Made by a program: the position numbers and the translations under genes | In this document: positions 3,711 through 52,017 of the stretch, piece by piece | Position numbering within the stretch: the first letter of the stretch is position 1 | Layout of the letters: every line of letters starts with the position of its first letter | The notes under the pieces: generated by a model | Told to the model about the DNA's origin: nothing | Databases searched by the model: none | The model's input: only the letters and a program-made list of their open reading frames with translations | DNA from: an uncultured Bacteroidia bacterium | Lineage (GTDB): Bacteria > Bacteroidota > Bacteroidia > Bacteroidales > Prolixibacteraceae | Assembly (NCBI GenBank): GCA_903923905.1 | Contig: CAIXZH010000004.1 | Span: forward strand, 69,074-133,073 | Length of the DNA: 64,000 bases | Direction of reading: 5' to 3'

Positions 3711-4697
3711 ATGACCATGCTTCAACCTAACCGGGAACATCCGAAAGAAAAGTTAAGCCTCCATCCACGGAACAGGCACAGAGAGCGTTATGATTTTAAG
3801 TTGTTGATTGATAGTTGCCCTGAATTAGCTCCACATGTCAGGATGAATCCCTACAGTGACGAATCGATTAATTTTTTTGATCCGGAAGCGGTGAAGGCGC
3901 TCAACAAAGCATTGTTAAAGTACTATTATAACGTTCAATATTGGGATATTCCTCCGGGTTATTTGTGCCCTCCCATCCCCGGAAGAGCCGACTATATCCA
4001 TCATATCGCAGATTTGTTGGGTGGCTGTAATCGGGAGAAGATTCCGTCTGGGATTCAAATCAAATGTCTGGATGTAGGAGCAGGGGCCAATTGTGTTTAT
4101 CCCATTATCGGAAATAAGGAGTACGGTTGGTCATTTGTAGGTTCAGAAATTGATCCGGTTGCACTGGAAGCAGCACAAAGGATTATCAATTTGAATTCCA
4201 ATTTAACGGACAAGGTAGCGCTGAGACTCCAGGATAATTCCAAGTATATATTTGAAGGTATTATTGAACAGAACGAACGTTTTGATTTATCGGTCTGCAA
4301 TCCCCCTTTCCATGCATCATCTGCCGAAGCGCAATCGGGGACAATGCGTAAATTGAAAAATCTGTCAGGCAGGAAGATCAATAATCCGGTACTGAACTTT
4401 GGTGGTCAGCAAAATGAACTTTGGTGTGAAGGGGGTGAAGTGAGGTTTGTAGGGGATATGATTCGCGAAAGCCAAAGATTTTCAGCCTCTTGTCTGTGGT
4501 TTTCCACGCTGGTCTCAAGAGAATCCAATCTTAAAAATTGCTACGAGGCTTTAAGAAAGGTGGGGGTAGCCGAAGTTAAAACCATTCCGATGGGCCAAGG
4601 GAGCAAAATCAGCCGGATTGTGGCATGGACGTTTCTTAATAAAGATGAAAAGGAAAGATGGGTTAAAGAGAGGTGGGAACCGAAACTTAAGGTATAA
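3711..4697 (+). CDS. rlmF: 23S rRNA (adenine1618-N6)-methyltransferase RlmF
   Basis: LHPRNRHRERYDF, AVKALNKALLKYYY, WDIPPGYLCPPIPGRADYIHHIADLL and NPPFH closely parallel E. coli RlmF. The ORF-track start at 3702 is TTG and overlaps the pcm stop; the first ATG is at 3711. Confidence 0.88.
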   Translation: MTMLQPNREHPKEKLSLHPRNRHRERYDFKLLIDSCPELAPHVRMNPYSDESINFFDPEAVKALNKALLKYYYNVQYWDIPPGYLCPPIPGRADYIHHIADLLGGCNREKIPSGIQIKCLDVGAGANCVYPIIGNKEYGWSFVGSEIDPVALEAAQRIINLNSNLTDKVALRLQDNSKYIFEGIIEQNERFDLSVCNPPFHASSAEAQSGTMRKLKNLSGRKINNPVLNFGGQQNELWCEGGEVRFVGDMIRESQRFSASCLWFSTLVSRESNLKNCYEALRKVGVAEVKTIPMGQGSKISRIVAWTFLNKDEKERWVKERWEPKLKV

Positions 4698-5089
4698 AAG
4701 GTAATTTGTAATTTCGCGTAGGGAAAATCTGTCAGTAGGAAAAGGGGTAAACAACCATTGTATTGTCCCGGACAAAAGAACCTCATATTCTCAATTTTTC
4801 TACCGACCTTAAGTTCCAGACGGAACCTGAAAATAAAATTTTAGAGATTTTAAGTTTCACGATGAAAATAACCATTGAAACCTCAAAATTCTACTCCGGT
4901 TTTCTCACTTTAAACTGCAAAATCGGATGAAAAAACTGTGGTGCCGGACAAAAAATGGCCGACTTTCTCCTTAAAAGCTTCGGTGGCGAAAAAATTAAGT
5001 TTGACTTTCTGTATAATCACTGCGGTGTCCATGTAAATTACTTCGATATCCAAATAAGTTTTATGTAAATTGCAGCAAAATTCGTTAAA

Positions 5090-7993
5090 ATGGCACTTAA
5101 CTTTCGGTGTTTTATCAATTACGTTGAAAAGCACATTAATGGAGACGAAAAAGGGGAGGCTCAAATATTCCTGGACCACTTTTTTCAGGCTTTGGGATAT
5201 TTGGATGGATTAAAAGGTGCAGGGGCTGATTGTGAATTCCGCATGAGGGACGAGAAAGGTTCTACCAAATTTGCCGACCTGGTCTGGAAACCCATCGTCC
5301 TGATTGAAATGAAAAAACGGGGGGCAGATTTGACCATACATTACCAGCAAGCCTTTGACTACTGGGTAAAATTGGTCCCCAACCGACCCCAATATGTAAT
5401 CCTCTGCAATTTTGACGAATTCTGGATTTACGATTTAAATAAACGGGTTTATGAACCTCTCGAAAAGATCAAAACCGTTCAGTTAGTTGATCGTCAGGAC
5501 GCTTTTGGGTTTTTACTTCCAAAACCCCAGACCCCGATTTTTAATTACAACCAGGAAGATGCAACTGAGAAGGCGGCCTATTACATTTCGCACGTTTACC
5601 GCTCTTTATTAGGAAGGAGGATTACACCCGACATAGCCTTAAAATATTGCCTGCAAATGGTTCTGACCATGTTTGCAGAAGATACCGGATTATTGCCTGA
5701 CCATATCTTTACCCGGATTATCAAGGAATTGTTGAAGGAACCCGGTGGCGCGGGAGATAAGATTTCCAAATCGTATGACCTCATCAGCGGGCTTTTTAAT
5801 GCCATGAATACCCAGGGCATTACTGACGGTGGCCGATTTGAAGGTGTCGAATATTTTAACGGAGGACTGTTCGATAAAATATTTCCGCTGGAACTTACCA
5901 GTCACGAAATCACCCTGATTGACATGGCTGCATCTTTTAACTGGTGCCATGTGAATCCCGCAATCTTTGGTTCCATTTTTGAATTTGCACTCGACAGTAA
6001 AGAGCGGCACAAACTCGGCGCCCATTATACTCATGAATTGGATATTAAAAAAATAGTCGTCCCGGTGATCGTACAACCCTGGACCGATAAAATTGAGGCT
6101 GCCCAAACACTCGAAAATTATTTCAGCCTGCTCACCGAATTATCAAATTTTAAGGTGCTTGACCCAGCCTGCGGAAGCGGGAATTTCTTGTTTGTGGCCT
6201 TCAAGGAGATGAAAATCCTTGAAAAGCGTTTGCTTTCCGAAATGCGCGAAAAGTTTAATAAACCTGCCGATGCAAAGTTGGTTATTCCCTTCCTGATCAA
6301 TTATAAATACGTGGCTACCAATCAGTTTTATGGTCTCGATATTAAACCTTTTGCTGTTGAACTCGCTAAAGTGACTTTAATGATTGCCAAGGAGCTCACC
6401 TGGCTCGGCGCCAGGGAAGATCACGACAATAAATACAAACCTCTGCCGCTCGATAACCTCGACAATAACATTCTTTGCGAAGATGCCTTATTAAATCCCG
6501 ACGGCTCACAACGCCAGTGGCCCGAAGCCGATGCAATCATTGGCAATCCACCCTACCAGAGCAAAAACAAGATGCAGCAAGAGTTCGGCGTTGAATACAT
6601 CGAGAATTTGCATAAGGCCTACCCCGAAATTCCGGGCCGGGCAGACTTTTGCGTATATTGGTTTTACAAAGCACACCAAAATTTAAAACCAAATCATTTC
6701 GCCGGGTTGGTTGGCACAAACACGATACGTCAGAACTATAGCCGTGAAGGGAGCCTCGATTATATCGTAAAAAATGGGGGGACCATTATCAACGCTGTTT
6801 CGTCCGAAAAATGGATGGGTGAAGCGGCCGTATTTGTTTCTATCGTTTGTTGGACCAAAGGCCAATTTACCAAAGAGAAAACATTGTATTATTACGACAA
6901 CCACAGTCAATTATTCAGCGCTGTGATGCCAATTATCAGCAGTAGTCTCAGTTTAAAATCAGATGTCACATTGGCAAAGACTTTGCGATGTAATAAAGAA
7001 CCCAAAAAGGTATTTCAGGGACAGACCCATGGGCATATTGGATTTTTACTTTCGGCTTCAAAAGCTAAAACAATATTAAGGGAAAATCCCGGATATTCAG
7101 AGGTCCTTAAACCATTTTTGATTGGAGATGAACTCGTCTCAAATATTAAGGCCCAACCCGAACGATTTGTTATTGATTTTACGTACAAGGATATCCATCA
7201 GGCTTCAACCTATACCGAGCTATTTAAAAAGATAGAAAAAGAAGTTCTTCCAGAAAGAGAGAAGCGAGCAAAAGAACAGGAGAGTGAAAACAAGAAAGCA
7301 TTTGAGGTAAATCAAAACTCTAAAGGAAACAAACATCATTTGAATTTTTACAATAAATGGTGGCAATTAAGTTATGGCCGAGATGAAATGTTGAATTCAA
7401 TTTCACAATTAACCAGATATATTGCATGTGCCAGGGTAACTCAGAGGCCTATATTTGAATTTATATCTTCAAAGATTCATCCCAATGATAAAGTCATATG
7501 TTTTGCCTTCGAAGATGATTATTCATTTGGCATTATTCAATCGGGTATTCATTGGCTTTGGTTTACTGAGAAATGTACGACATTGGCTGAAACGCCCAAT
7601 TATAATTCGGCAGCGATTTGGGACACCTTTCCCTGGCCGCAAGACCCATCAGAGAAGCAGATCATGACTATTGCAAAGGCGTCGAAAGCATTGCGTGATG
7701 AGCGTAACCAGGTTATGAATGAGAATAAACAGAGTTTGCGCGATATTTACCGGCTGCTTGAGAGGCCGGGGAAAAACAGCATCCGCGATTTGCAGCAGGC
7801 GCTCGATAAGGCTATTCTGGAGGCTTATGGGTTCGATGGCTCATCCGATTTACTGGCTCAATTGCTGGAACTTAATCTTCAGGTGTCCGAAAAAGAAGCG
7901 AAACGGGAGGTGGTTCAGTCTCCCGGGTTGCCGGTTTGGTTTAAGGATCGGGAACGGGTTGTTTCGGAGGATTGTGTGAAATTTTTGGGATAA
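5090..7993 (+). CDS. MmeI-family Type IIL restriction-modification enzyme (fused endonuclease / N6-adenine DNA methyltransferase / target-recognition domain)
   Basis: 967 aa. N-terminal PD-(D/E)xK-like FADLVWKPIVLIEMKKRG (D63, E73, K75; nt 5276-5314) matches MmeI FVDLFWPGILLIEMKSRG. AIFGSIFEFALDSKERHKLGAHYT matches MmeI AIFGSLFQSIMDAKKRRNLGAHYT. SAM motif I DPACGSGNF at nt 6161, motif IV NPPY at nt 6545, and WDTFPWP in the C-terminal part. Confidence 0.85.
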   Translation: MALNFRCFINYVEKHINGDEKGEAQIFLDHFFQALGYLDGLKGAGADCEFRMRDEKGSTKFADLVWKPIVLIEMKKRGADLTIHYQQAFDYWVKLVPNRPQYVILCNFDEFWIYDLNKRVYEPLEKIKTVQLVDRQDAFGFLLPKPQTPIFNYNQEDATEKAAYYISHVYRSLLGRRITPDIALKYCLQMVLTMFAEDTGLLPDHIFTRIIKELLKEPGGAGDKISKSYDLISGLFNAMNTQGITDGGRFEGVEYFNGGLFDKIFPLELTSHEITLIDMAASFNWCHVNPAIFGSIFEFALDSKERHKLGAHYTHELDIKKIVVPVIVQPWTDKIEAAQTLENYFSLLTELSNFKVLDPACGSGNFLFVAFKEMKILEKRLLSEMREKFNKPADAKLVIPFLINYKYVATNQFYGLDIKPFAVELAKVTLMIAKELTWLGAREDHDNKYKPLPLDNLDNNILCEDALLNPDGSQRQWPEADAIIGNPPYQSKNKMQQEFGVEYIENLHKAYPEIPGRADFCVYWFYKAHQNLKPNHFAGLVGTNTIRQNYSREGSLDYIVKNGGTIINAVSSEKWMGEAAVFVSIVCWTKGQFTKEKTLYYYDNHSQLFSAVMPIISSSLSLKSDVTLAKTLRCNKEPKKVFQGQTHGHIGFLLSASKAKTILRENPGYSEVLKPFLIGDELVSNIKAQPERFVIDFTYKDIHQASTYTELFKKIEKEVLPEREKRAKEQESENKKAFEVNQNSKGNKHHLNFYNKWWQLSYGRDEMLNSISQLTRYIACARVTQRPIFEFISSKIHPNDKVICFAFEDDYSFGIIQSGIHWLWFTEKCTTLAETPNYNSAAIWDTFPWPQDPSEKQIMTIAKASKALRDERNQVMNENKQSLRDIYRLLERPGKNSIRDLQQALDKAILEAYGFDGSSDLLAQLLELNLQVSEKEAKREVVQSPGLPVWFKDRERVVSEDCVKFLG

Positions 7994-45947: not shown

Positions 45948-47043
45948 ATGATCCTAAAGGACCAGCTTAAAGAGCTTGTTGAGCGCCGGGATGCGCTGAG
46001 GAGGTTTCTTTGACGTCGATAATAAATTAATCAGGCTCGAAGAAGAAGAACTTAAAACCCAGGATCCCGCTTTTTGGGAGAATCCAAAGGAGGCTGAGCG
46101 CCAGATGATGGTGATCCGCTCAATTAAGCAGTGGACTGACGGTTTTAAATCAGTCGATCAGGTAGTTGAAGATTTGCAGATCATGTTTGATTACAGTGAA
46201 GCTGGTGAAATTACCGAGGATGAACTTGAGGAGCATTTTATTGAAGCGAGGGGACTTACTGAAGACCTCGAAACTAAAAACATGCTCCGGCGCGAAGAGG
46301 ACAGGCTTGGCGCTGTTTTGAAAATTAACGCCGGTGCCGGTGGAACTGAGTCGAACGACTGGGCCGATATGCTTATGCGCATGTACCTCCGATGGGCCGA
46401 AAAGCATAAATATAAGGTTCGTGAAGCGAGTTTTGTCCCTGGTGAAGATGTAGGTGTAAAGAGCGTTACCATCGAGATTGAGGGTGAATTTGCGTATGGT
46501 TATCTTAAAAGCGAAAATGGGGTGCACAGGCTTGTACGCATCTCACCGTTCAACGCTCAGGGTAAAAGACAGACTTCTTTTACTTCAGTCTTTGTGGCAC
46601 CATTAGTAGATGATACCATTGTCATTGATGTAAATCCCGTAGATATTTCCTGGGATACCTTTCGTTCAGGCGGTGCGGGAGGACAGAATGTAAATAAAGT
46701 GGAGACTGGTGTACGGCTTAAACATGCACCTTCGGGTATCATCATCGAAAATACGGAGTCGCGATCACAGCTACAGAACAAAGAGAATGCTATCAGGTTG
46801 CTAAAATCACAACTTTATGCACTTGAGCTTCAGAGACGCCACGAAGCAACAACAAAAATTGAAGCCGGTAAGAAAAAAATAGAGTGGGGATCCCAGATCC
46901 GCTCTTATACCATGCAACCGTATAAACTGGTTAAAGATGTCCGGACCGGATTTGAATCCTCAAATGTACAGGGGGTAATGGATGGAGATATCGATGGGTT
47001 TATTAAGGCATTTTTAATGGAATTTTCTGAAGGTGAAAATTGA
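45948..47043 (+). CDS. prfB: peptide chain release factor 2, requiring programmed +1 ribosomal frameshift at 46008-46014
   Basis: Frame 0 reads [21 protein letters not shown] then TGA (46011-46013). Shifting +1 from GAC at 46012 reads [37 protein letters not shown]..., in frame with the ORF-track segment 46105..47043. SPF and GGQ ([15 protein letters not shown]) motifs are present. Confidence 0.92.
45999..46014 (+). promoter_or_regulatory. RF2 autoregulatory frameshift site: AGGAGG (internal SD-like) + CTT TGA C
   Basis: AGG AGG TTT CTT TGA C read directly. It is close to the canonical E. coli prfB shift cassette (slippery CUU U, stop UGA followed by C). Confidence 0.9.
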
Positions 47044-49359: not shown

Positions 49360-49438
49360 ATCGTTTTTATAATCATTAATTTAATTTATTTTGAATAGGG
49401 GTATCTTTAACTCTATAATCCAAGATAGTGAGCCTGAC

Positions 49439-50818
49439 ATGAAAATACCAACTTTAATAAATTCTTCATCCAAGATAAACGGTGAGCTTATTTTCACAAC
49501 CGATGTTCGCATCGATGGGGAAGTTTTTGGGAAAGTAGAATCGGATAAAAGTGTGATTATTGGGGCTGAAGGATATGTTAAAGGTTTCCTTCGCGCTAAT
49601 GATCTCGTTGTATTCGGTAGGTTTGAGGGGAATATTATTGTTTCGGGACTTACAATTCTTCATGAGAGTGCTTCTGTTTTTGGAACCTTATATACCAAAG
49701 CATTAGAAGTTAAGGATGGCGCTACTATTACTGCATGTGTTGTTATGTATGATAAATTGGAAGCGATTGATGAAGCACAGATTTATCTTGCCGAAGAGAT
49801 GATTAAAGCTGAACCTGCCCGCAGGCAGGTTCTCACCGCTTCCCATGTCAAGATTTCATTTGATGATGCTCTTGATTCAACCAAAGCAGATGGGTTAAAA
49901 ATCGTTTCAGACCTGAAGGATTATCCAACACCCGAACCAGTGTCTAATGATTCAGGTGATGTTCTGTCAAAGATCAGGGAAAATAATGGTAGGGCTGAGG
50001 ATATGATAATTTACAAACAAAAAGCTGACCTTTTTGATATTGCGGAGAAGGTCAATGCTACTTCTCCATCGGAATCGCCTGTGGAAATTCTCCAGTCTGA
50101 GGATGATTTTTCAAAGGAAAAATTGTTTGAAGATGAAGCTTATGAGGCTGTTAACCAAGATGATCCTTTACAATTGACTTCTATTGAAGCCGCAGCAAAA
50201 CCTATCTTCTCAGATACAGTAACGGAAATCGAGGAAACAGATTCTCTCTGTCCGGTACCCTTTGACGAAGATGAAACGTTCATCCTTTTGACCTCAATGG
50301 ATGAGCCAGGGGAAGAACCCCAATCCGGAAAATCCACGGAGTCTTCTGTTCCAGAGATTGTTACTATTTCCGAAGTAGATCAGGGCCAAACACTTGAATT
50401 CGATTTTGAAGATAGTTATGTTGATAATGGAGAATTGGTTCTTTTCCCATTACCTAATCCGATTTCAATTGCCGGATGCCTGGGGGAGCCGGTAATGGAT
50501 GATTCCTCTATGTTCAGAAAGGGGAAGAAAAAACCGATAAGGTCGGAGAATACAATAATTACTCAGACCTCAAGAAAAAATAAAGGAGGACGTGGTATTT
50601 CAGGATTTGAAGAATTAAGGAATCTCCTGATCCCTGTAAAATATCAGCAGATGAAGCTGGCAGAAAAGAAGAATGATCAGGAGAAGATTAATGCTAAGAA
50701 AATTAAGGATAACGAGAATGAAGGGACCAGGTCTAAAGAGTCGGAAAAGAATGAATTATTTCTAAATAATGCGATTCGACATTTGCCTGATGATGACTAT
50801 TCTTCATTATTTAATTAA
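49439..50818 (+). CDS. bactofilin-domain protein with about 350-aa acidic low-complexity C-terminal extension
   Basis: Bactofilin beta-helix repeats INGELIFTTDVRIDGEVFGKVESDKSVIIGAEGYVKGFLRANDLVVFGRFEGNIIVSGLTILHESASVFGTLYTKALEVKDGATITACV (nt 49469-49744). The ATG at 49439 is preferred over the TTG at 49391. Confidence 0.78.
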   Translation: MKIPTLINSSSKINGELIFTTDVRIDGEVFGKVESDKSVIIGAEGYVKGFLRANDLVVFGRFEGNIIVSGLTILHESASVFGTLYTKALEVKDGATITACVVMYDKLEAIDEAQIYLAEEMIKAEPARRQVLTASHVKISFDDALDSTKADGLKIVSDLKDYPTPEPVSNDSGDVLSKIRENNGRAEDMIIYKQKADLFDIAEKVNATSPSESPVEILQSEDDFSKEKLFEDEAYEAVNQDDPLQLTSIEAAAKPIFSDTVTEIEETDSLCPVPFDEDETFILLTSMDEPGEEPQSGKSTESSVPEIVTISEVDQGQTLEFDFEDSYVDNGELVLFPLPNPISIAGCLGEPVMDDSSMFRKGKKKPIRSENTIITQTSRKNKGGRGISGFEELRNLLIPVKYQQMKLAEKKNDQEKINAKKIKDNENEGTRSKESEKNELFLNNAIRHLPDDDYSSLFN

Positions 50819-50877
50819 GTGTAATACAGAACAATATAAAAATAAGTTCCGTACCTAGAAACTATAATAAAAGAACT

Positions 50878-51924
50878 ATGAAACGATCGTATGTATTTCC
50901 GAGTGTTTATGAAGAAACAACTGTTGATTTTGCTAAAGTGGCAGCGAATTTTATTGAAGGAATGAAAATCAATAACTTTAATCAACGCAATTATTTAATT
51001 GGCAATATGGCATTAACAGAAGGTAGTGCCCCTCATAAATTTCTAAACAGTTCAGCTCAGGATCTTGATTATCAGTTAATGGCTCTTACAGCCTTAATTA
51101 TTGCTGCACAGGGTACGGACAATAAAATGGTAATTACCACAGGCTTTCCTTTTATCACGCATGCGATCTATAAAAAAGGAGCACGGGATTTCTATTTGGG
51201 AAAACACCAGGTTAGTTTCGATACAAGAACCTTTGGCGGAACAGGTGTTGAAAATATTAGCGTTAATGTTTCTGCATTTGATGTAATGACTGAGATTGAC
51301 GGTTGTATAAAAGCTATTCGTCAGGGTCATATGGAAGAAACTCAGAACTTCTTTATTGGCAGTCTTGGATTTGGTACTTTTGAACTGGCACTTTCAACTC
51401 CTTCCGGTATCATTCAACGAACAGCTCATAGCGAAAAGGGGATTAATTATGCCGTGAATATTTTGGAAAATGAGATTATAAAACAATATTATCTCAACAT
51501 GCTTACCGGTCAACAGATCGAGCGAGCTTTTCAGCGGGGCTTCTTTTTAATCAATCGCCGTAAAGTGGATGTTTTAGAGATTCGCAAGCGTGCCCTGACC
51601 AGCTATTATAATGAAGTCATTTCACCTGCAATGCGCAAGAAATTTTCTGATGAGGACTTTTCAAGAACGAATAAAATTTACCTTGTTGGGGGAGGTGCAA
51701 TGTATTCCGAATTAATTACTCTTTTCAAGGAAGAGTTTCAGGACATTCTTGAAGTTATTGTTTATCCGGAGCCTTATCTTTGTGCAAGTGAAGGTTATTG
51801 TTTAAATTCAGTAGCGATGGTTCCGGCAACCAATAGCCTGGAATTAAAAGAAAATATTACCTATGTTGGCATCGATTTAGGAAACTCAAACACCGTAGTG
51901 ACCATCTTTAATGAAACAGAATAA
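50878..51924 (+). CDS. ParM/StbA/Alp-like actin-fold (ASKHA) protein, apparently circularly permuted
   Basis: Phosphate-2-like FIGSLGFGTFEL (nt 51352-51387), adenosine loop IYLVGGGA (nt 51676-51699), and SYVFPSV and MVITTGFPF strands are in ParM order. The phosphate-1 hairpin ITYVGIDLGNSNTVVTIF sits at the extreme C-terminus (nt 51856-51921) rather than at the N-terminus. Confidence 0.7.
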   Translation: MKRSYVFPSVYEETTVDFAKVAANFIEGMKINNFNQRNYLIGNMALTEGSAPHKFLNSSAQDLDYQLMALTALIIAAQGTDNKMVITTGFPFITHAIYKKGARDFYLGKHQVSFDTRTFGGTGVENISVNVSAFDVMTEIDGCIKAIRQGHMEETQNFFIGSLGFGTFELALSTPSGIIQRTAHSEKGINYAVNILENEIIKQYYLNMLTGQQIERAFQRGFFLINRRKVDVLEIRKRALTSYYNEVISPAMRKKFSDEDFSRTNKIYLVGGGAMYSELITLFKEEFQDILEVIVYPEPYLCASEGYCLNSVAMVPATNSLELKENITYVGIDLGNSNTVVTIFNETE

Positions 51925-51955
51925 CTCTTATTCAGGAAGGATTGAATCTTAGTAA

Positions 51956-52002
51956 TTTAAATAAAAAGTTTATTGAAATTTTCAATAAACTTTTTATTTA
52001 AA
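51956..52002. terminator. 47-nt perfect AT-rich palindrome between convergent genes (bidirectional terminator candidate)
   Basis: TTTAAATAAAAAGTTTATTGAAA (51956-51978), centre t, then TTTCAATAAACTTTTTATTTAAA (51980-52002): exact reverse complements. Confidence 0.7.
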
Positions 52003-52017
52003 GACATTTCTGACTTA

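Follow-up and report, generated by a model that had tools for sequence, protein, structure and literature searches.

Can the nucleotide-binding hairpin that opens the actin fold come instead from the opposite end of the polypeptide chain? To our knowledge, the chain order of the actin/ASKHA superfamily, with phosphate-1 first, has been taken as fixed in members as different as sugar kinases and eukaryotic actin. The order of motifs reportedly laid down by Bork, Sander and Valencia in 1992 is phosphate-1, connect-1, phosphate-2, adenosine and connect-2. The question is raised by a gene in the genome of an uncultured Bacteroidia bacterium, found in a stretch of 64,000 nucleotides that is called the window here. 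A sequence-only reading had proposed that the 348-residue product of this gene is a plasmid-type (ParM/Alp) actin whose phosphate-1 hairpin lies at the C-terminus. The reading frame is present in the window, and the peptides quoted in that reading all occur at the residues assigned to them. The features of the gene and of the spacer that precedes it are as follows.

50819 to 50877, + strand: intergenic spacer of 59 nt between the stop of the upstream bactofilin gene and the actin start (frame and start-codon check)
50878 to 51924, + strand: gene for the ParM/Alp-type actin-fold protein, circularly permuted by sequence comparison, 348 aa plus stop
50881 to 50916, + strand: N-terminal strand, residues 2-13, KRSYVFPSVYEE, the probable β3 equivalent with the PS motif (alignment and model)
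51127 to 51153, + strand: MVITTGFPF, residues 84-92, strand β4 and the next loop, subdomain IA (conservation)
51283 to 51306, + strand: VMTEIDGC, residues 136-143, including E139 (alignment with relatives)
51352 to 51387, + strand: phosphate-2 loop, residues 159-170, FIGSLGFGTFEL, with the signature residues S162 and E169 (alignment with relatives)
51676 to 51699, + strand: adenosine motif IYLVGGGA, residues 267-274 (G271, G272, G273 and A274 invariant)
51772 to 51819, + strand: last helix of the canonical fold, residues 299-314 as modeled, including SEGYCL (304-309)
51820 to 51855, + strand: variable linker, residues 315-326, between the former C-terminus and the former N-terminus (no conserved columns; pLDDT below 50 at 318-322)
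51856 to 51921, + strand: relocated β1-turn-β2 phosphate-1 hairpin, residues 327-348, ITYVGIDLGNSNTVVTIFNETE (conservation, hhalign, gain in ALP_N score, model)

The phosphate-1, phosphate-2 and adenosine elements of the ASKHA superfamily are thus all present and conserved in this protein, but phosphate-1 (331-339) comes last, after the C-terminal helix. The placement of the hairpin at residues 327-348 (nt 51856-51921) is as the sequence-only reading had it. At the other end, the peptide SYVFPSV occupies residues 4-10, and residues 2-13 align to residues ~19-30 of non-permuted relatives, for example YLFPSIVGEA. Further along, G89 and P91 are invariant among the permuted proteins and nearly so among the non-permuted relatives. 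The latter end at the helix 299-314, being alignable only to query residue ~307-310. That reading had also held that the 59-nt spacer could not encode the missing hairpin, and this is borne out: the actin frame is shut by a TAA at 50812-50814, just before the bactofilin stop codon (50816-50818), and a scan of the spacer for ATG, GTG and TTG in the actin frame upstream of the ATG at 50878 found none. With the frame closed and no earlier start, an N-terminal hairpin cannot be encoded upstream.

The simplest objection is that the unusual order is an artefact of assembly, binning or gene calling, or a rearrangement private to the window, and the window, whose nearest loci are from lake MAGs, probably does come from a metagenome-assembled genome. 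That explanation is refuted by the recurrence of the layout in 79 independent loci, among them isolates and contigs of 3-8 Mb, and in 135 protein clusters; we consider its probability negligible. All 79 genome loci examined have the permuted order, and cultured isolates are among them: Odoribacter lunatus DSM 112344, Maribellus maritimus, Salinibacter altiplanensis, Belliella aquatica, Mongoliitalea lutea and Penaeicola halotolerans. The family is large, with hosts in the Bacteroidota plus Salinibacter/Salinivenus, and the same layout reappears in lineages so remote that identity is down to 18-25%. In every one of the 135 full-length family clusters, a G[ILMV]D[ILV]G motif lies at about residue 320-345, save in the N-terminally extended P0125, where it is at 434; the other matches to this pattern, in P0052 and P0133 only, are unrelated and due to chance. 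Non-permuted relatives have the motif at residues 4-39, mostly 4-15. Homologs close to the window protein are all permuted, none having an N-terminal hairpin.

Within the hairpin, G331, D333, G335, N336, N338 and T339 are invariant in 22 homologs down to 53% identity, as is the motif G-x-D-x-G-N-x-N-T in the same alignment, while the preceding linker varies in sequence. The length of this linker is nearly constant across the family, at 12-16 residues. These patterns bear on the possibility that the C-terminal segment lies outside the fold, the protein being an N-terminally truncated, nucleotide-blind pseudo-actin whose likeness to phosphate-1 is accidental. In favor of such a view, the hairpin-to-hairpin comparison is weak when taken alone: an alternative hhalign alignment places residues 328-342 on positions 4-18 of the non-permuted profile with P = 0.059 over 15 columns. 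It is hard to reconcile, however, with six phosphate-1 residues that are invariant family-wide next to a variable linker, with the recurrence of the layout in lineages at 18-25% identity, and with the de-permutation and truncation results described below. We regard it as very improbable.

The relationship to ParM and the ASKHA superfamily, which the sequence-only reading had recognized by motif, is confirmed by profile searches. The protein passes the threshold of Pfam ALP_N PF17989 (35.3 bits, cutoff 26.3) over profile positions 17-139 of 148, its C-terminal half matches Pfam MreB-like_C PF21522 (30.1 bits, cutoff 27.8), and it matches phrog_691, “partition protein”, with E = 3e-17, the match starting at position 26 of 329. 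Both the ALP_N and the phrog_691 matches begin past the hairpin part of the respective profile. Similarly, residues ~19-24 of the non-permuted relatives align to query residues 3-5, and the alignment stops near query residue 307. The family models did not identify the protein as an MreB (Pfam MreB_Mbl, 13.7 bits, cutoff 27; NCBIfam MreB, 12.9, cutoff 293), the similarity to these models being confined to the adenosine motif. Neither the protein nor the family profile found a significant sequence match in the PDB; the only hit, an insignificant one at the adenosine motif, also pairs the C-terminal hairpin of the query with target residues 2-18. PADLOC models of defense systems matched neither the actin nor its bactofilin neighbor. 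A practical consequence is that profiles dependent on sequence order will under-detect permuted actins, since every profile match found here is truncated.

If the hairpin truly belongs to the fold, restoring it to the N-terminus in silico should extend these truncated matches. In four proteins rearranged in this way and rescored against ALP_N, the scores rose from 35.3 to 45.2, 39.5 to 47.7, 33.5 to 41.9 and 31.0 to 41.3 bits, a gain of 8-10 bits in all four, and the start of the match moved to profile position 1. For the window protein, the 45.2 bits now cover profile positions 1-139. Relative to the core alone, grafting of the real hairpin onto the N-terminus added 11.3 bits, whereas control grafts of one reversed and two shuffled hairpins added 1.1 to 4.6 (totals of 35.0-38.5 bits). 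The gain is specific to the real hairpin sequence. Consistent with this, hhalign against the non-permuted profile scored 254 when the family was de-permuted (columns 3-340 against 5-339) and 244 when the core alone was used.

An AlphaFold2 model of the permuted protein has the actin fold (pLDDT 81.6, pTM 0.85), the input alignment comprising 22 sequences and parts of subdomain IB being at pLDDT 59-70. The C-terminal 22 residues are not disordered in the model; the hairpin forms two strands, 327-334 and 338-345 (block pLDDT 84 and 79), and the N-terminal segment forms strands 2-8 and 10-13. When the hairpin was deleted, pTM fell from 0.85 to 0.76, the pLDDT of residues 1-26 dropped from 86/70/69 to 43/45/52, and strand 2-8 was lost; only residues 1-26 and 44-57 were destabilized. 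Such a loss of N-terminal confidence is expected if β2 pairs with β3. From this truncation control and the DSSP strand states, we infer that the two strands probably do so, and on the model the hairpin most probably returns, in cis, to the sheet of subdomain IA, beside the N-terminal strand. Mean-field direct-coupling analysis of 194 family sequences (effective number 65), aimed at contacts between hairpin and β3 that would not depend on AlphaFold2, returned gap and indel artefacts as its top couplings (columns 34, 318-327 and 348).

A Foldseek search with the model, a comparison that had been proposed together with the sequence-only reading, matched ParM-like actin structures. Ta0583 was best (E = 7.6e-14, TM 0.66-0.72), and further matches were to pCBH ParM, Alp7A, CorM, Dh-cParM1 and pSK41 ParM; all of those listed have E of ~8e-14 to 1e-10 and TM of 0.57-0.72. 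Ta0583, from Thermoplasma acidophilum (PDB 2fsj, 2fsk and 2fsn), also shares with the C-terminal half of our protein the match to PF21522; it differs in its canonical strand order, has ~15% identity, and lacks a bactofilin context.

Judged by the sequence comparisons, then, the protein is a ParM/Alp-type actin-fold ATPase in which a genuine circular permutation has become fixed in evolution. The claim of the sequence-only reading is upheld by the conservation of the layout, the gain on de-permutation and the predicted structure; to that reading the present analysis adds a bactofilin partner, correlated changes in the active site and permuted relatives of plasmid type. Such a natural, conserved and widespread permutation indicates that the nucleotide-binding hairpin can indeed be contributed by the opposite terminus. 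The permuted chain would depart from the canonical one (β1-turn-β2, β3 and onward to a final helix that returns to subdomain IA) by starting at β3, proceeding to the canonical C-terminal helix and then, across a linker of 12-16 residues, to β1-turn-β2. Docked in cis, the hairpin would rebuild the nucleotide site. Most probably the protein would also be a nucleotide-dependent filament former, as are its ParM/Alp relatives, with the polymer of a neighboring bactofilin as scaffold or adaptor. This explanation as a whole, from fixed permutation and cis hairpin to bactofilin-scaffolded filament, is in our estimation quite probable.

A different use of the same hairpin can be imagined, in which β1-β2 is inserted into subdomain IA of a neighboring subunit, such that strand donation drives or locks polymerization. 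The tether is a flexible and variable linker with pLDDT below 50 at 318-322, and apart from the N-terminal strand the remainder of the fold is confidently predicted without the hairpin. The monomer model nonetheless places the hairpin confidently in cis, and the short, near-constant linker of 12-16 residues is consistent with a fixed intramolecular connection. Donation in trans is thus quite unlikely, and docking in cis remains our preferred reading.

The nucleotide site carries a signature of its own. Position 139, which we take to correspond to Q137 of actin and E148 of ParM, is E in 22/22 permuted family members and Q in 29/29 non-permuted relatives. Residue 162 is S in all 22 permuted members and D in 27/29 of the relatives, and residue 169 is E in 21/22 and D in 25/29, respectively. 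The permuted proteins thus have E/S/E where their nearest non-permuted relatives have Q/D/D, and across the compared sequences the three changes at the carboxylate sites (Q to E139, D to S162, D to E169) correlate with the permutation. The phosphate-2 loop had been described in the sequence-only reading as degenerate on account of an S in place of D and an F in place of G. The serine stands as a fixed signature of the family; the phenylalanine does not count as degeneracy, F or Y being normal at the second glycine position of this loop in the nearest non-permuted relatives. The phosphate-1 aspartate (D333), the phosphate-2 glycines and the adenosine GGGA are retained. The protein may bind and hydrolyze ATP, although replacement of the phosphate-2 aspartate by serine means that the handling of Mg-ATP could be altered or weak. 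The family constitutes a natural experiment on the coupling of hairpin, C-terminal helix and domain closure in actin-like ATPases.

The permuted actin does not stand alone. Its upstream neighbor encodes a bactofilin, and the two genes appear to form a single unit.

49439 to 50818, + strand: bactofilin partner gene, PF04519 (start at ATG 49439 preferred)
50753 to 50815, + strand: C-terminal peptide of the bactofilin, ELFLNNAIRHLPDDDYSSLFN, the conserved end of its variable tail and a candidate actin-binding motif
51956 to 52002, no strand assigned: perfect 22-bp AT-rich stem-loop between the convergent actin and CAP-domain genes (folding energy)

As listed, the bactofilin reading frame runs from a TTG at 49391 (475 aa). 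Its orthologs begin MKIPTLINSS, which makes the ATG at 49439 the likelier start. Residues 21-115 match Pfam Bactofilin PF04519 (E = 7.7e-22; 77.8 bits, cutoff 27.9), a standard domain such as is found in BacA/BacB of Caulobacter, CcmA of Helicobacter and BacNOP of Myxococcus. The gene pair recurs. A bactofilin ORF lies on the same strand as the permuted actin, directly upstream in 37 loci and directly downstream in 13 others; the bactofilin-linked loci span 39-96% identity, and their remaining neighbors are unrelated. The partnership can be dispensed with: no bactofilin adjoins the gene in the Odoribacter clade or in a MAG clade of uncultured Bacteroidales (several from ruminant gut). The unit probably ends downstream of the actin: the 91-nt stretch 51920-52010, which contains the stem-loop, has a folding energy of -24.2 kcal/mol (z = -5.6), equaled by none of 200 shuffles. 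A scan for consensus terminators did not report the stem-loop at 51956 to 52002, because its stem is devoid of G-C pairs; it is likely the end of the bactofilin-actin transcription unit.

The bactofilin itself offers a possible point of contact. Its C-terminal peptide comes after a tail of some 350 aa, the length and sequence of which differ among orthologs. In the window clade, tails range from 216 to 420 aa, and their last ~20 residues are conserved as FLNxAIxxLPxDD[YF]SSL[FY]. The bactofilins of other clades have short acidic/aromatic C-terminal peptides of their own, which differ between clades. Among bacterial actin homologs, FtsA is recruited by a short conserved peptide that ends a long variable linker on FtsZ, and the bactofilin tails resemble that arrangement, although we treat the likeness as a lead only. 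By analogy, we infer that the C-terminal peptide may bind the actin, and it could take the part that the C-terminus of ParR plays for ParM. The conserved pairing points to an uncharacterized two-polymer cytoskeletal system in the Bacteroidota. The known partners of bactofilins in the literature covered here are cell-wall enzymes and ParAB-associated proteins; a search for a ParM or actin-like partner found none in the literature covered, in which subscription journals were thinly represented. No description of a permuted actin was found under the same thin coverage, and the family is undescribed in the literature searched. The hosts include Odoribacter, a gut genus, as well as halophilic and marine species that can be cultured, in which the system could be tested.

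FtsA is itself a precedent among bacterial actins for a non-canonical domain arrangement, but it relocates a whole subdomain, 1C, and its phosphate-1 stays N-terminal. Its chain is not permuted, and it has no sequence relationship with the present family beyond that of the superfamily. The BeeR family of Verrucomicrobiota, which forms three-stranded tubes, was also considered and rejected, being MamK-like and canonical with a disordered N-terminal extension.

The linkage to bactofilin admits another role for the actin. Bactofilin polymers need no nucleotide, and an actin-fold ATPase that does not itself polymerize might act as an enzyme or chaperone-like regulator that, for example, remodels or disassembles them. 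The tightness of the linkage would suit such a role, as would the E/S/E constellation, which implies a nucleotide chemistry unlike that of the ParM-like relatives. The adenosine region also weakly matches EutJ and a “CoA-substrate-specific enzyme activase” (PDB 7yyl), which are non-cytoskeletal ASKHA proteins. Against this, the nearest relatives by profile and fold (ParM, Alp7A, Alp12, CorM, MreB and Ta0583) are filament formers or close kin of these, and distant permuted relatives reside in parCMR-like loci, which work by polymerization. We judge a non-polymerizing ATPase unlikely, if less so than strand donation in trans, and continue to favor a filament former for which bactofilin would provide the scaffold.

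How does such a protein relate to the segregation actins? With R1 ParM, pSK41 ParM, pCBH ParM, Alp7A, Alp12 and the chromosomal Dh-cParM1, the permuted model shares the two-domain actin fold, and with ParM/StbA/Alp proteins the permuted sequence shares the β3 PS, TGxP, phosphate-2 glycine and adenosine GGG motifs. It differs from them in its C-terminal rather than N-terminal hairpin, in having E/S/E against the Q/D/D of the nearest non-permuted proteins, and in that the window family is chromosomal, without centromere or ParR, and paired with bactofilin. One might still suppose that the window holds an ordinary ParM partition ATPase of a plasmid or prophage, stranded in the chromosome: databases name such proteins ParM/StbA, phrog_691 is matched, and distant permuted relatives occur in plasmid-like loci. 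The setting speaks strongly to the contrary. The gene is chromosomal, with its unit flanked by housekeeping genes (serS, kup, recX, prfB, acs and that for methylmalonyl-CoA mutase). No iteron array lies upstream of the bactofilin-actin unit, and no small ParR-type gene lies directly downstream of the actin, where the stem-loop and then the convergent CAP-domain gene are found. It thus has none of the three marks of a type II ParMRC system, namely parC iterons, a ParR gene and a mobile replicon. Plasmid and phage collections were searched by tblastn, the queries being the window protein and two distant permuted relatives. No member of the family turned up, and the matches were limited to four remote Yersinia ParM/StbA genes, which align to half the query at 25-26% identity. 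Together with vertical conservation alongside bactofilin across orders, these results make a stranded partition gene highly improbable.

The distant permuted relatives, a group of at least seven proteins in a profile search with seven of them, have a different setting, with the layout of a parC-parM-parR locus. At loci L082 and L083, 11-bp iteron arrays precede the actin gene; ORFs of 89-104 aa lie downstream, and one locus also carries TrfA, resolvase and BrnT/BrnA-like genes. A neighbor-joining tree contains a bipartition that unites all permuted lineages, recovered in 77 of 200 bootstraps, which gives weak support to a single origin. That permuted relatives with parC-like iterons occur on plasmids suggests how a segregation motor could have become a chromosomal cytoskeleton. 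It is conceivable, though on balance doubtful, that a family widespread in the Bacteroidota has domesticated a plasmid-type ParM motor as a chromosomal composite cytoskeleton, in which a permuted filament is coupled to a bactofilin polymer by the bactofilin peptide in place of ParR, and in which the hairpin is a tethered, detachable lid whose docking, in cis or on a neighboring subunit, gates the binding of nucleotide and the assembly of filaments. It would then be without precedent as a natural circular permutation of the actin fold and as an actin-bactofilin system. At the distant loci, one of the small downstream ORFs ends in EIDSFFSN, which resembles the DDYSSLFN of the bactofilin.

The window gene product is a ParM/Alp-type actin, judged by homology and predicted fold, in which the phosphate-1 hairpin (beta1-turn-beta2) comes last, out of the canonical ASKHA motif order. 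Translation of the ORF places every motif where the sequence-only reading had quoted it. The features at issue are:

50753-50815, + strand: end peptide of the upstream bactofilin; consensus in the window's clade, ...FLNxAIxxLPxDD[YF]SSL[FY]
50878-51924, + strand: actin gene, 348 residues
51856-51921, + strand: C-terminal hairpin ITYVGIDLGNSNTVVTIFNETE, last 22 residues of the actin
51956-52002: perfect 22-bp stem-loop of A-T pairs only, found by folding, 3' of the actin gene and between it and a convergent CAP-domain gene

A spacer of 59 nt separates the stop codon of the upstream gene from the actin gene. A TAA at 50812-50814 interrupts the actin frame, which then has no start codon ahead of the ATG at 50878. 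Thus, an N-terminal hairpin cannot be encoded at this locus, and the spacer indeed has no coding capacity for it.

The proposed ParM/ASKHA relationship is borne out by profile matches. The protein exceeds the Pfam cutoffs for ALP_N (PF17989; 35.3 bits vs. 26.3) and MreB-like_C (PF21522; 30.1 bits vs. 27.8). The ALP_N alignment pairs residues 3-133 with profile positions 17-139 of 148, leaving the hairpin section of the profile unmatched; the hairpin part is again unmatched in phrog_691, “partition protein” (residues 5-305 with positions 26-316 of 329, E = 3e-17). No family model for the protein was found in NCBIfam, and sequence and family-profile searches of the PDB detected no similarity to any solved structure. 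Public annotation calls the homologues “hypothetical” or “ParM/StbA family protein”.

The permuted layout is kept among these homologues. Searching 5.8 billion proteins gave 204; among the 120 listed, lengths are 343-387 aa (one 299-aa fragment excepted), and in nearly all the match spans 96-100% of the query. When 22 homologues are aligned, with identity down to 53%, the hairpin residues G331, D333, G335, N336, N338 and T339 are invariant, and no column is conserved in the linker ahead of them (about residues 311-326). When 1.84 billion cluster representatives were searched exhaustively with a profile, the matches fell into three groups. The first comprises 15 further full-length lineages, all matched end to end (E = 1e-142 to 1e-72). 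Past a large score gap come about ten very distant permuted proteins (e.g., clusters P0204, P0209, P0231, P0232, P0237, P0239 and P0244), whose chains likewise end in xxDxGN. The third group holds many canonical relatives, in which residues ~19-24 correspond to query residues 3-5 and the chain ends near query residue 307. In a motif scan, 135/135 full-length family clusters carried G[ILMV]D[ILV]G towards the C-terminus, at about residue 320-345 (434 in P0125, owing to an N-terminal extension); canonical relatives carried it at residues 4-39, mostly 4-15. Two of the 135 have an extra, unrelated chance match elsewhere in the chain; none of the proteins bore a hairpin at each end.

Some members carry additional sequence at the new termini. 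Acidic-rich tails of 25-40 residues follow the hairpin among P0077, P0087, P0113, P0120 and P0126, with ~190 extra Lys/Glu-rich residues in P0126, and P0125 has a 110-residue extension ahead of beta3. The new termini therefore tolerate extensions.

Restoring the canonical order in silico, by shifting the last ~24 residues to the N-terminus, improved the match to canonical proteins. In an hhalign comparison with a profile built from 23 canonical relatives, the family in de-permuted order gave a colinear alignment (columns 3-340 to 5-339) scoring 254, compared with 244 for the core alone; in native order, an alternative alignment paired residues 328-342 with template positions 4-18. ALP_N scores rose in all four family-spanning proteins (35.3 to 45.2, 39.5 to 47.7, 33.5 to 41.9 and 31.0 to 41.3 bits), and each match then began at profile position 1. 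With the window protein, scores were 33.9 bits for the core by itself, 35.9 with a reversed hairpin, and 35.0 and 38.5 with two shuffled hairpins. Because the reversed and shuffled controls reached only 35.0-38.5 bits, the gain is specific to the real hairpin sequence at the canonical position.

Structure prediction agrees. An AlphaFold2 model from the 22-sequence alignment (mean pLDDT 81.6, pTM 0.85) has strands at 2-8 and 10-13, a last helix at 299-314 and a low-confidence linker at 318-322. The hairpin is modelled as two strands, 327-334 and 338-345 (block pLDDT 84 and 79). Foldseek against the PDB ranked Ta0583 first (E = 7.6e-14, TM 0.66-0.72), followed by pCBH ParM, Alp7A, CorM, Dh-cParM1, pSK41 ParM, Bacillus thuringiensis ParM, Alp12, MreB and R1 ParM. 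When the query was cut at residue 326 under the identical alignment, pTM fell to 0.76, pLDDT over residues 1-26 fell from 86/70/69 to 43/45/52 with loss of strand 2-8, and residues 44-57 dropped below 50; everything else in the model stayed as before. Actin-fold proteins have beta3 as an edge strand, paired with beta2 in the sheet of subdomain IA. If the hairpin inserts in cis, its removal should cost beta3 its partner, and the lost strand fits this; docking in cis is thus supported, indirectly and at the level of prediction. Taken with the conserved C-terminal hairpin and the hairpin-specific gain on de-permutation, the model and its truncation control uphold the reading of a circular permutation.

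Segment 44-57 (nt 51007-51048, LTEGSAPHKFLNSS) has G49, P52, H53, K54 and N57 invariant in the 22-sequence alignment; P52 and N57 are invariant in the wider family too, yet unconserved among canonical relatives. Since deletion of the hairpin removes all model confidence here, the segment may be in contact with the nucleotide or with the hairpin in its new place.

The active site differs systematically at three positions.

Active-site residues, permuted family (n = 22) against canonical relatives (n = 29)
Site equivalent to actin Q137 / ParM E148: permuted E139, 22/22; canonical Q, 29/29
First phosphate-2 residue: permuted S162, 22/22; canonical D, 27/29
Last phosphate-2 residue: permuted E169, 21/22; canonical D, 25/29

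The E/S/E signature recurs in 6/9 distant permuted proteins. The phosphate-2 loop had been called degenerate for an S and an F; the S in place of D is a true departure, but F or Y is normal in canonical relatives. The family keeps the phosphate-1 Asp, the phosphate-2 glycines and the adenosine GGGA motif. From its sequence, nucleotide binding is likely, and the nucleotide chemistry may be different.

Three distant permuted genes lie in plasmid-like surroundings. At locus L083 (3076-6360), P0232 is next to TrfA and resolvase genes and a BrnT/BrnA-like pair, with 22-bp iterons at 4390-4688, an 11-bp-periodic repeat array at 4867-4995 directly upstream and a 104-aa ORF downstream. At L082 (5670-7297), P0209 has dense 11-bp-periodic, ACTAGT-containing repeats 5' of the gene at 5670-5984 (11 overlapping 100-nt copies reported) and is followed by an 89-aa ORF. 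At L081 (2566-7364), P0239 lies after family B DNA polymerase and 5'-3' exonuclease genes and before a 91-aa ORF. Of these small downstream ORFs (89-104 aa), the two scanned had no Pfam match. R1 parC consists of 11-bp iterons, and the order repeat array-actin-small ORF matches the parC-parM-parR arrangement found in type II partition systems. A neighbour-joining tree of 300 core columns, hairpins left out, had a single branch with every permuted protein on the same side of it (bootstrap 77/200) and recovered the Bacteroidota family itself (165/200). A single origin of the permutation is plausible, not established.

The window has no parC-like repeat array; its lineage has exchanged the ParR/parC context for a bactofilin partner. 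The locus is chromosomal, with genes for seryl-tRNA synthetase, Kup, RecX, RF2, an MFS transporter, methylmalonyl-CoA mutase and, by its translation alone, an ORF taken as acetyl-CoA synthetase. Directly upstream of the actin gene, on the same strand, is a bactofilin gene (PF04519, E = 8e-22). The consensus terminator scan is blind to the downstream stem-loop because it requires G-C pairs, of which the stem has none.

Scanning one genome per species revealed 79 loci with a permuted actin gene, in Prolixibacteraceae, Maribellus, Draconibacterium, Sunxiuqinia, Paludibacter, Lentimicrobiaceae, Odoribacter, Roseivirga, Penaeicola, Belliella, Mongoliitalea, Mucilaginibacter, Salinibacter and Salinivenus; the closest (96% identity) come from lake MAGs assigned to uncultured Bacteroidia and Prolixibacteraceae. 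Counting these, the window and L001, a same-strand bactofilin ORF lies directly upstream in 37 loci, window included, and directly downstream in 13 (Roseivirga, Penaeicola, Belliella, Mongoliitalea, Salinibacter, Salinivenus and others). None adjoins the gene in the Odoribacter clade or in a second clade, made up of MAGs from uncultured Bacteroidales, several of them of ruminant-gut origin. The remaining neighbours are unrelated from clade to clade. That the two genes stay adjacent in either order, over 39-96% identity, speaks for a functional pair.

The actin-linked bactofilins (L001-L077 and the window) have a standard bactofilin domain and then a tail of 35-420 residues (216-420 in the window's clade), ending in a short acidic/aromatic peptide conserved within clades. 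End peptides of other clades are:

IPDEMTHSMFRL
DDDSFFFKIFQNQ
SKISQIKSL
NSFLFNxLNK

Most downstream-type partners end in Trp. The ParR C-terminus binds ParM, and the FtsZ C-terminal peptide binds FtsA; the bactofilin tail and end peptide recall both. By this analogy, the peptide would bind the permuted actin, for which we also infer ATPase activity, polymerisation and a cellular role. The small ORF of L082 ends EIDSFFSN, resembling the bactofilin end peptides.

In full-text literature, with most subscription journals outside its reach, we found nothing relevant on a permuted actin-like, ParM, MreB or ASKHA protein, or on a bactofilin linked to a ParM/actin-like protein or to Bacteroidota. Publications on BeeR, genome-encoded ParM, the evolution of actin-superfamily polymers (a review) and a bactofilin survey mention neither the permuted topology nor the bactofilin-ParM pairing.

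Three MAGs carry two separate bactofilin and permuted-actin modules on different contigs (L018/L020, L019/L025 and L032/L034), which suggests paralogous systems within one genome. The 2.8-kb contig of L011 (JAENWI010000220.1), labelled Peptostreptococcaceae, holds an 86%-identical copy; the label is probably a binning error, since every other close relative is from Bacteroidota. Elsewhere in the window, prfB (RF2) shows a classic programmed +1 frameshift site: within a short ORF, 45948-46014 (ATG at 45948), AGGAGG lies at 45999-46004 and CTT TGA C at 46008-46014, and the +1 frame runs on into a 312-aa ORF (46012-47043) whose PCRF match starts only at profile position 33.
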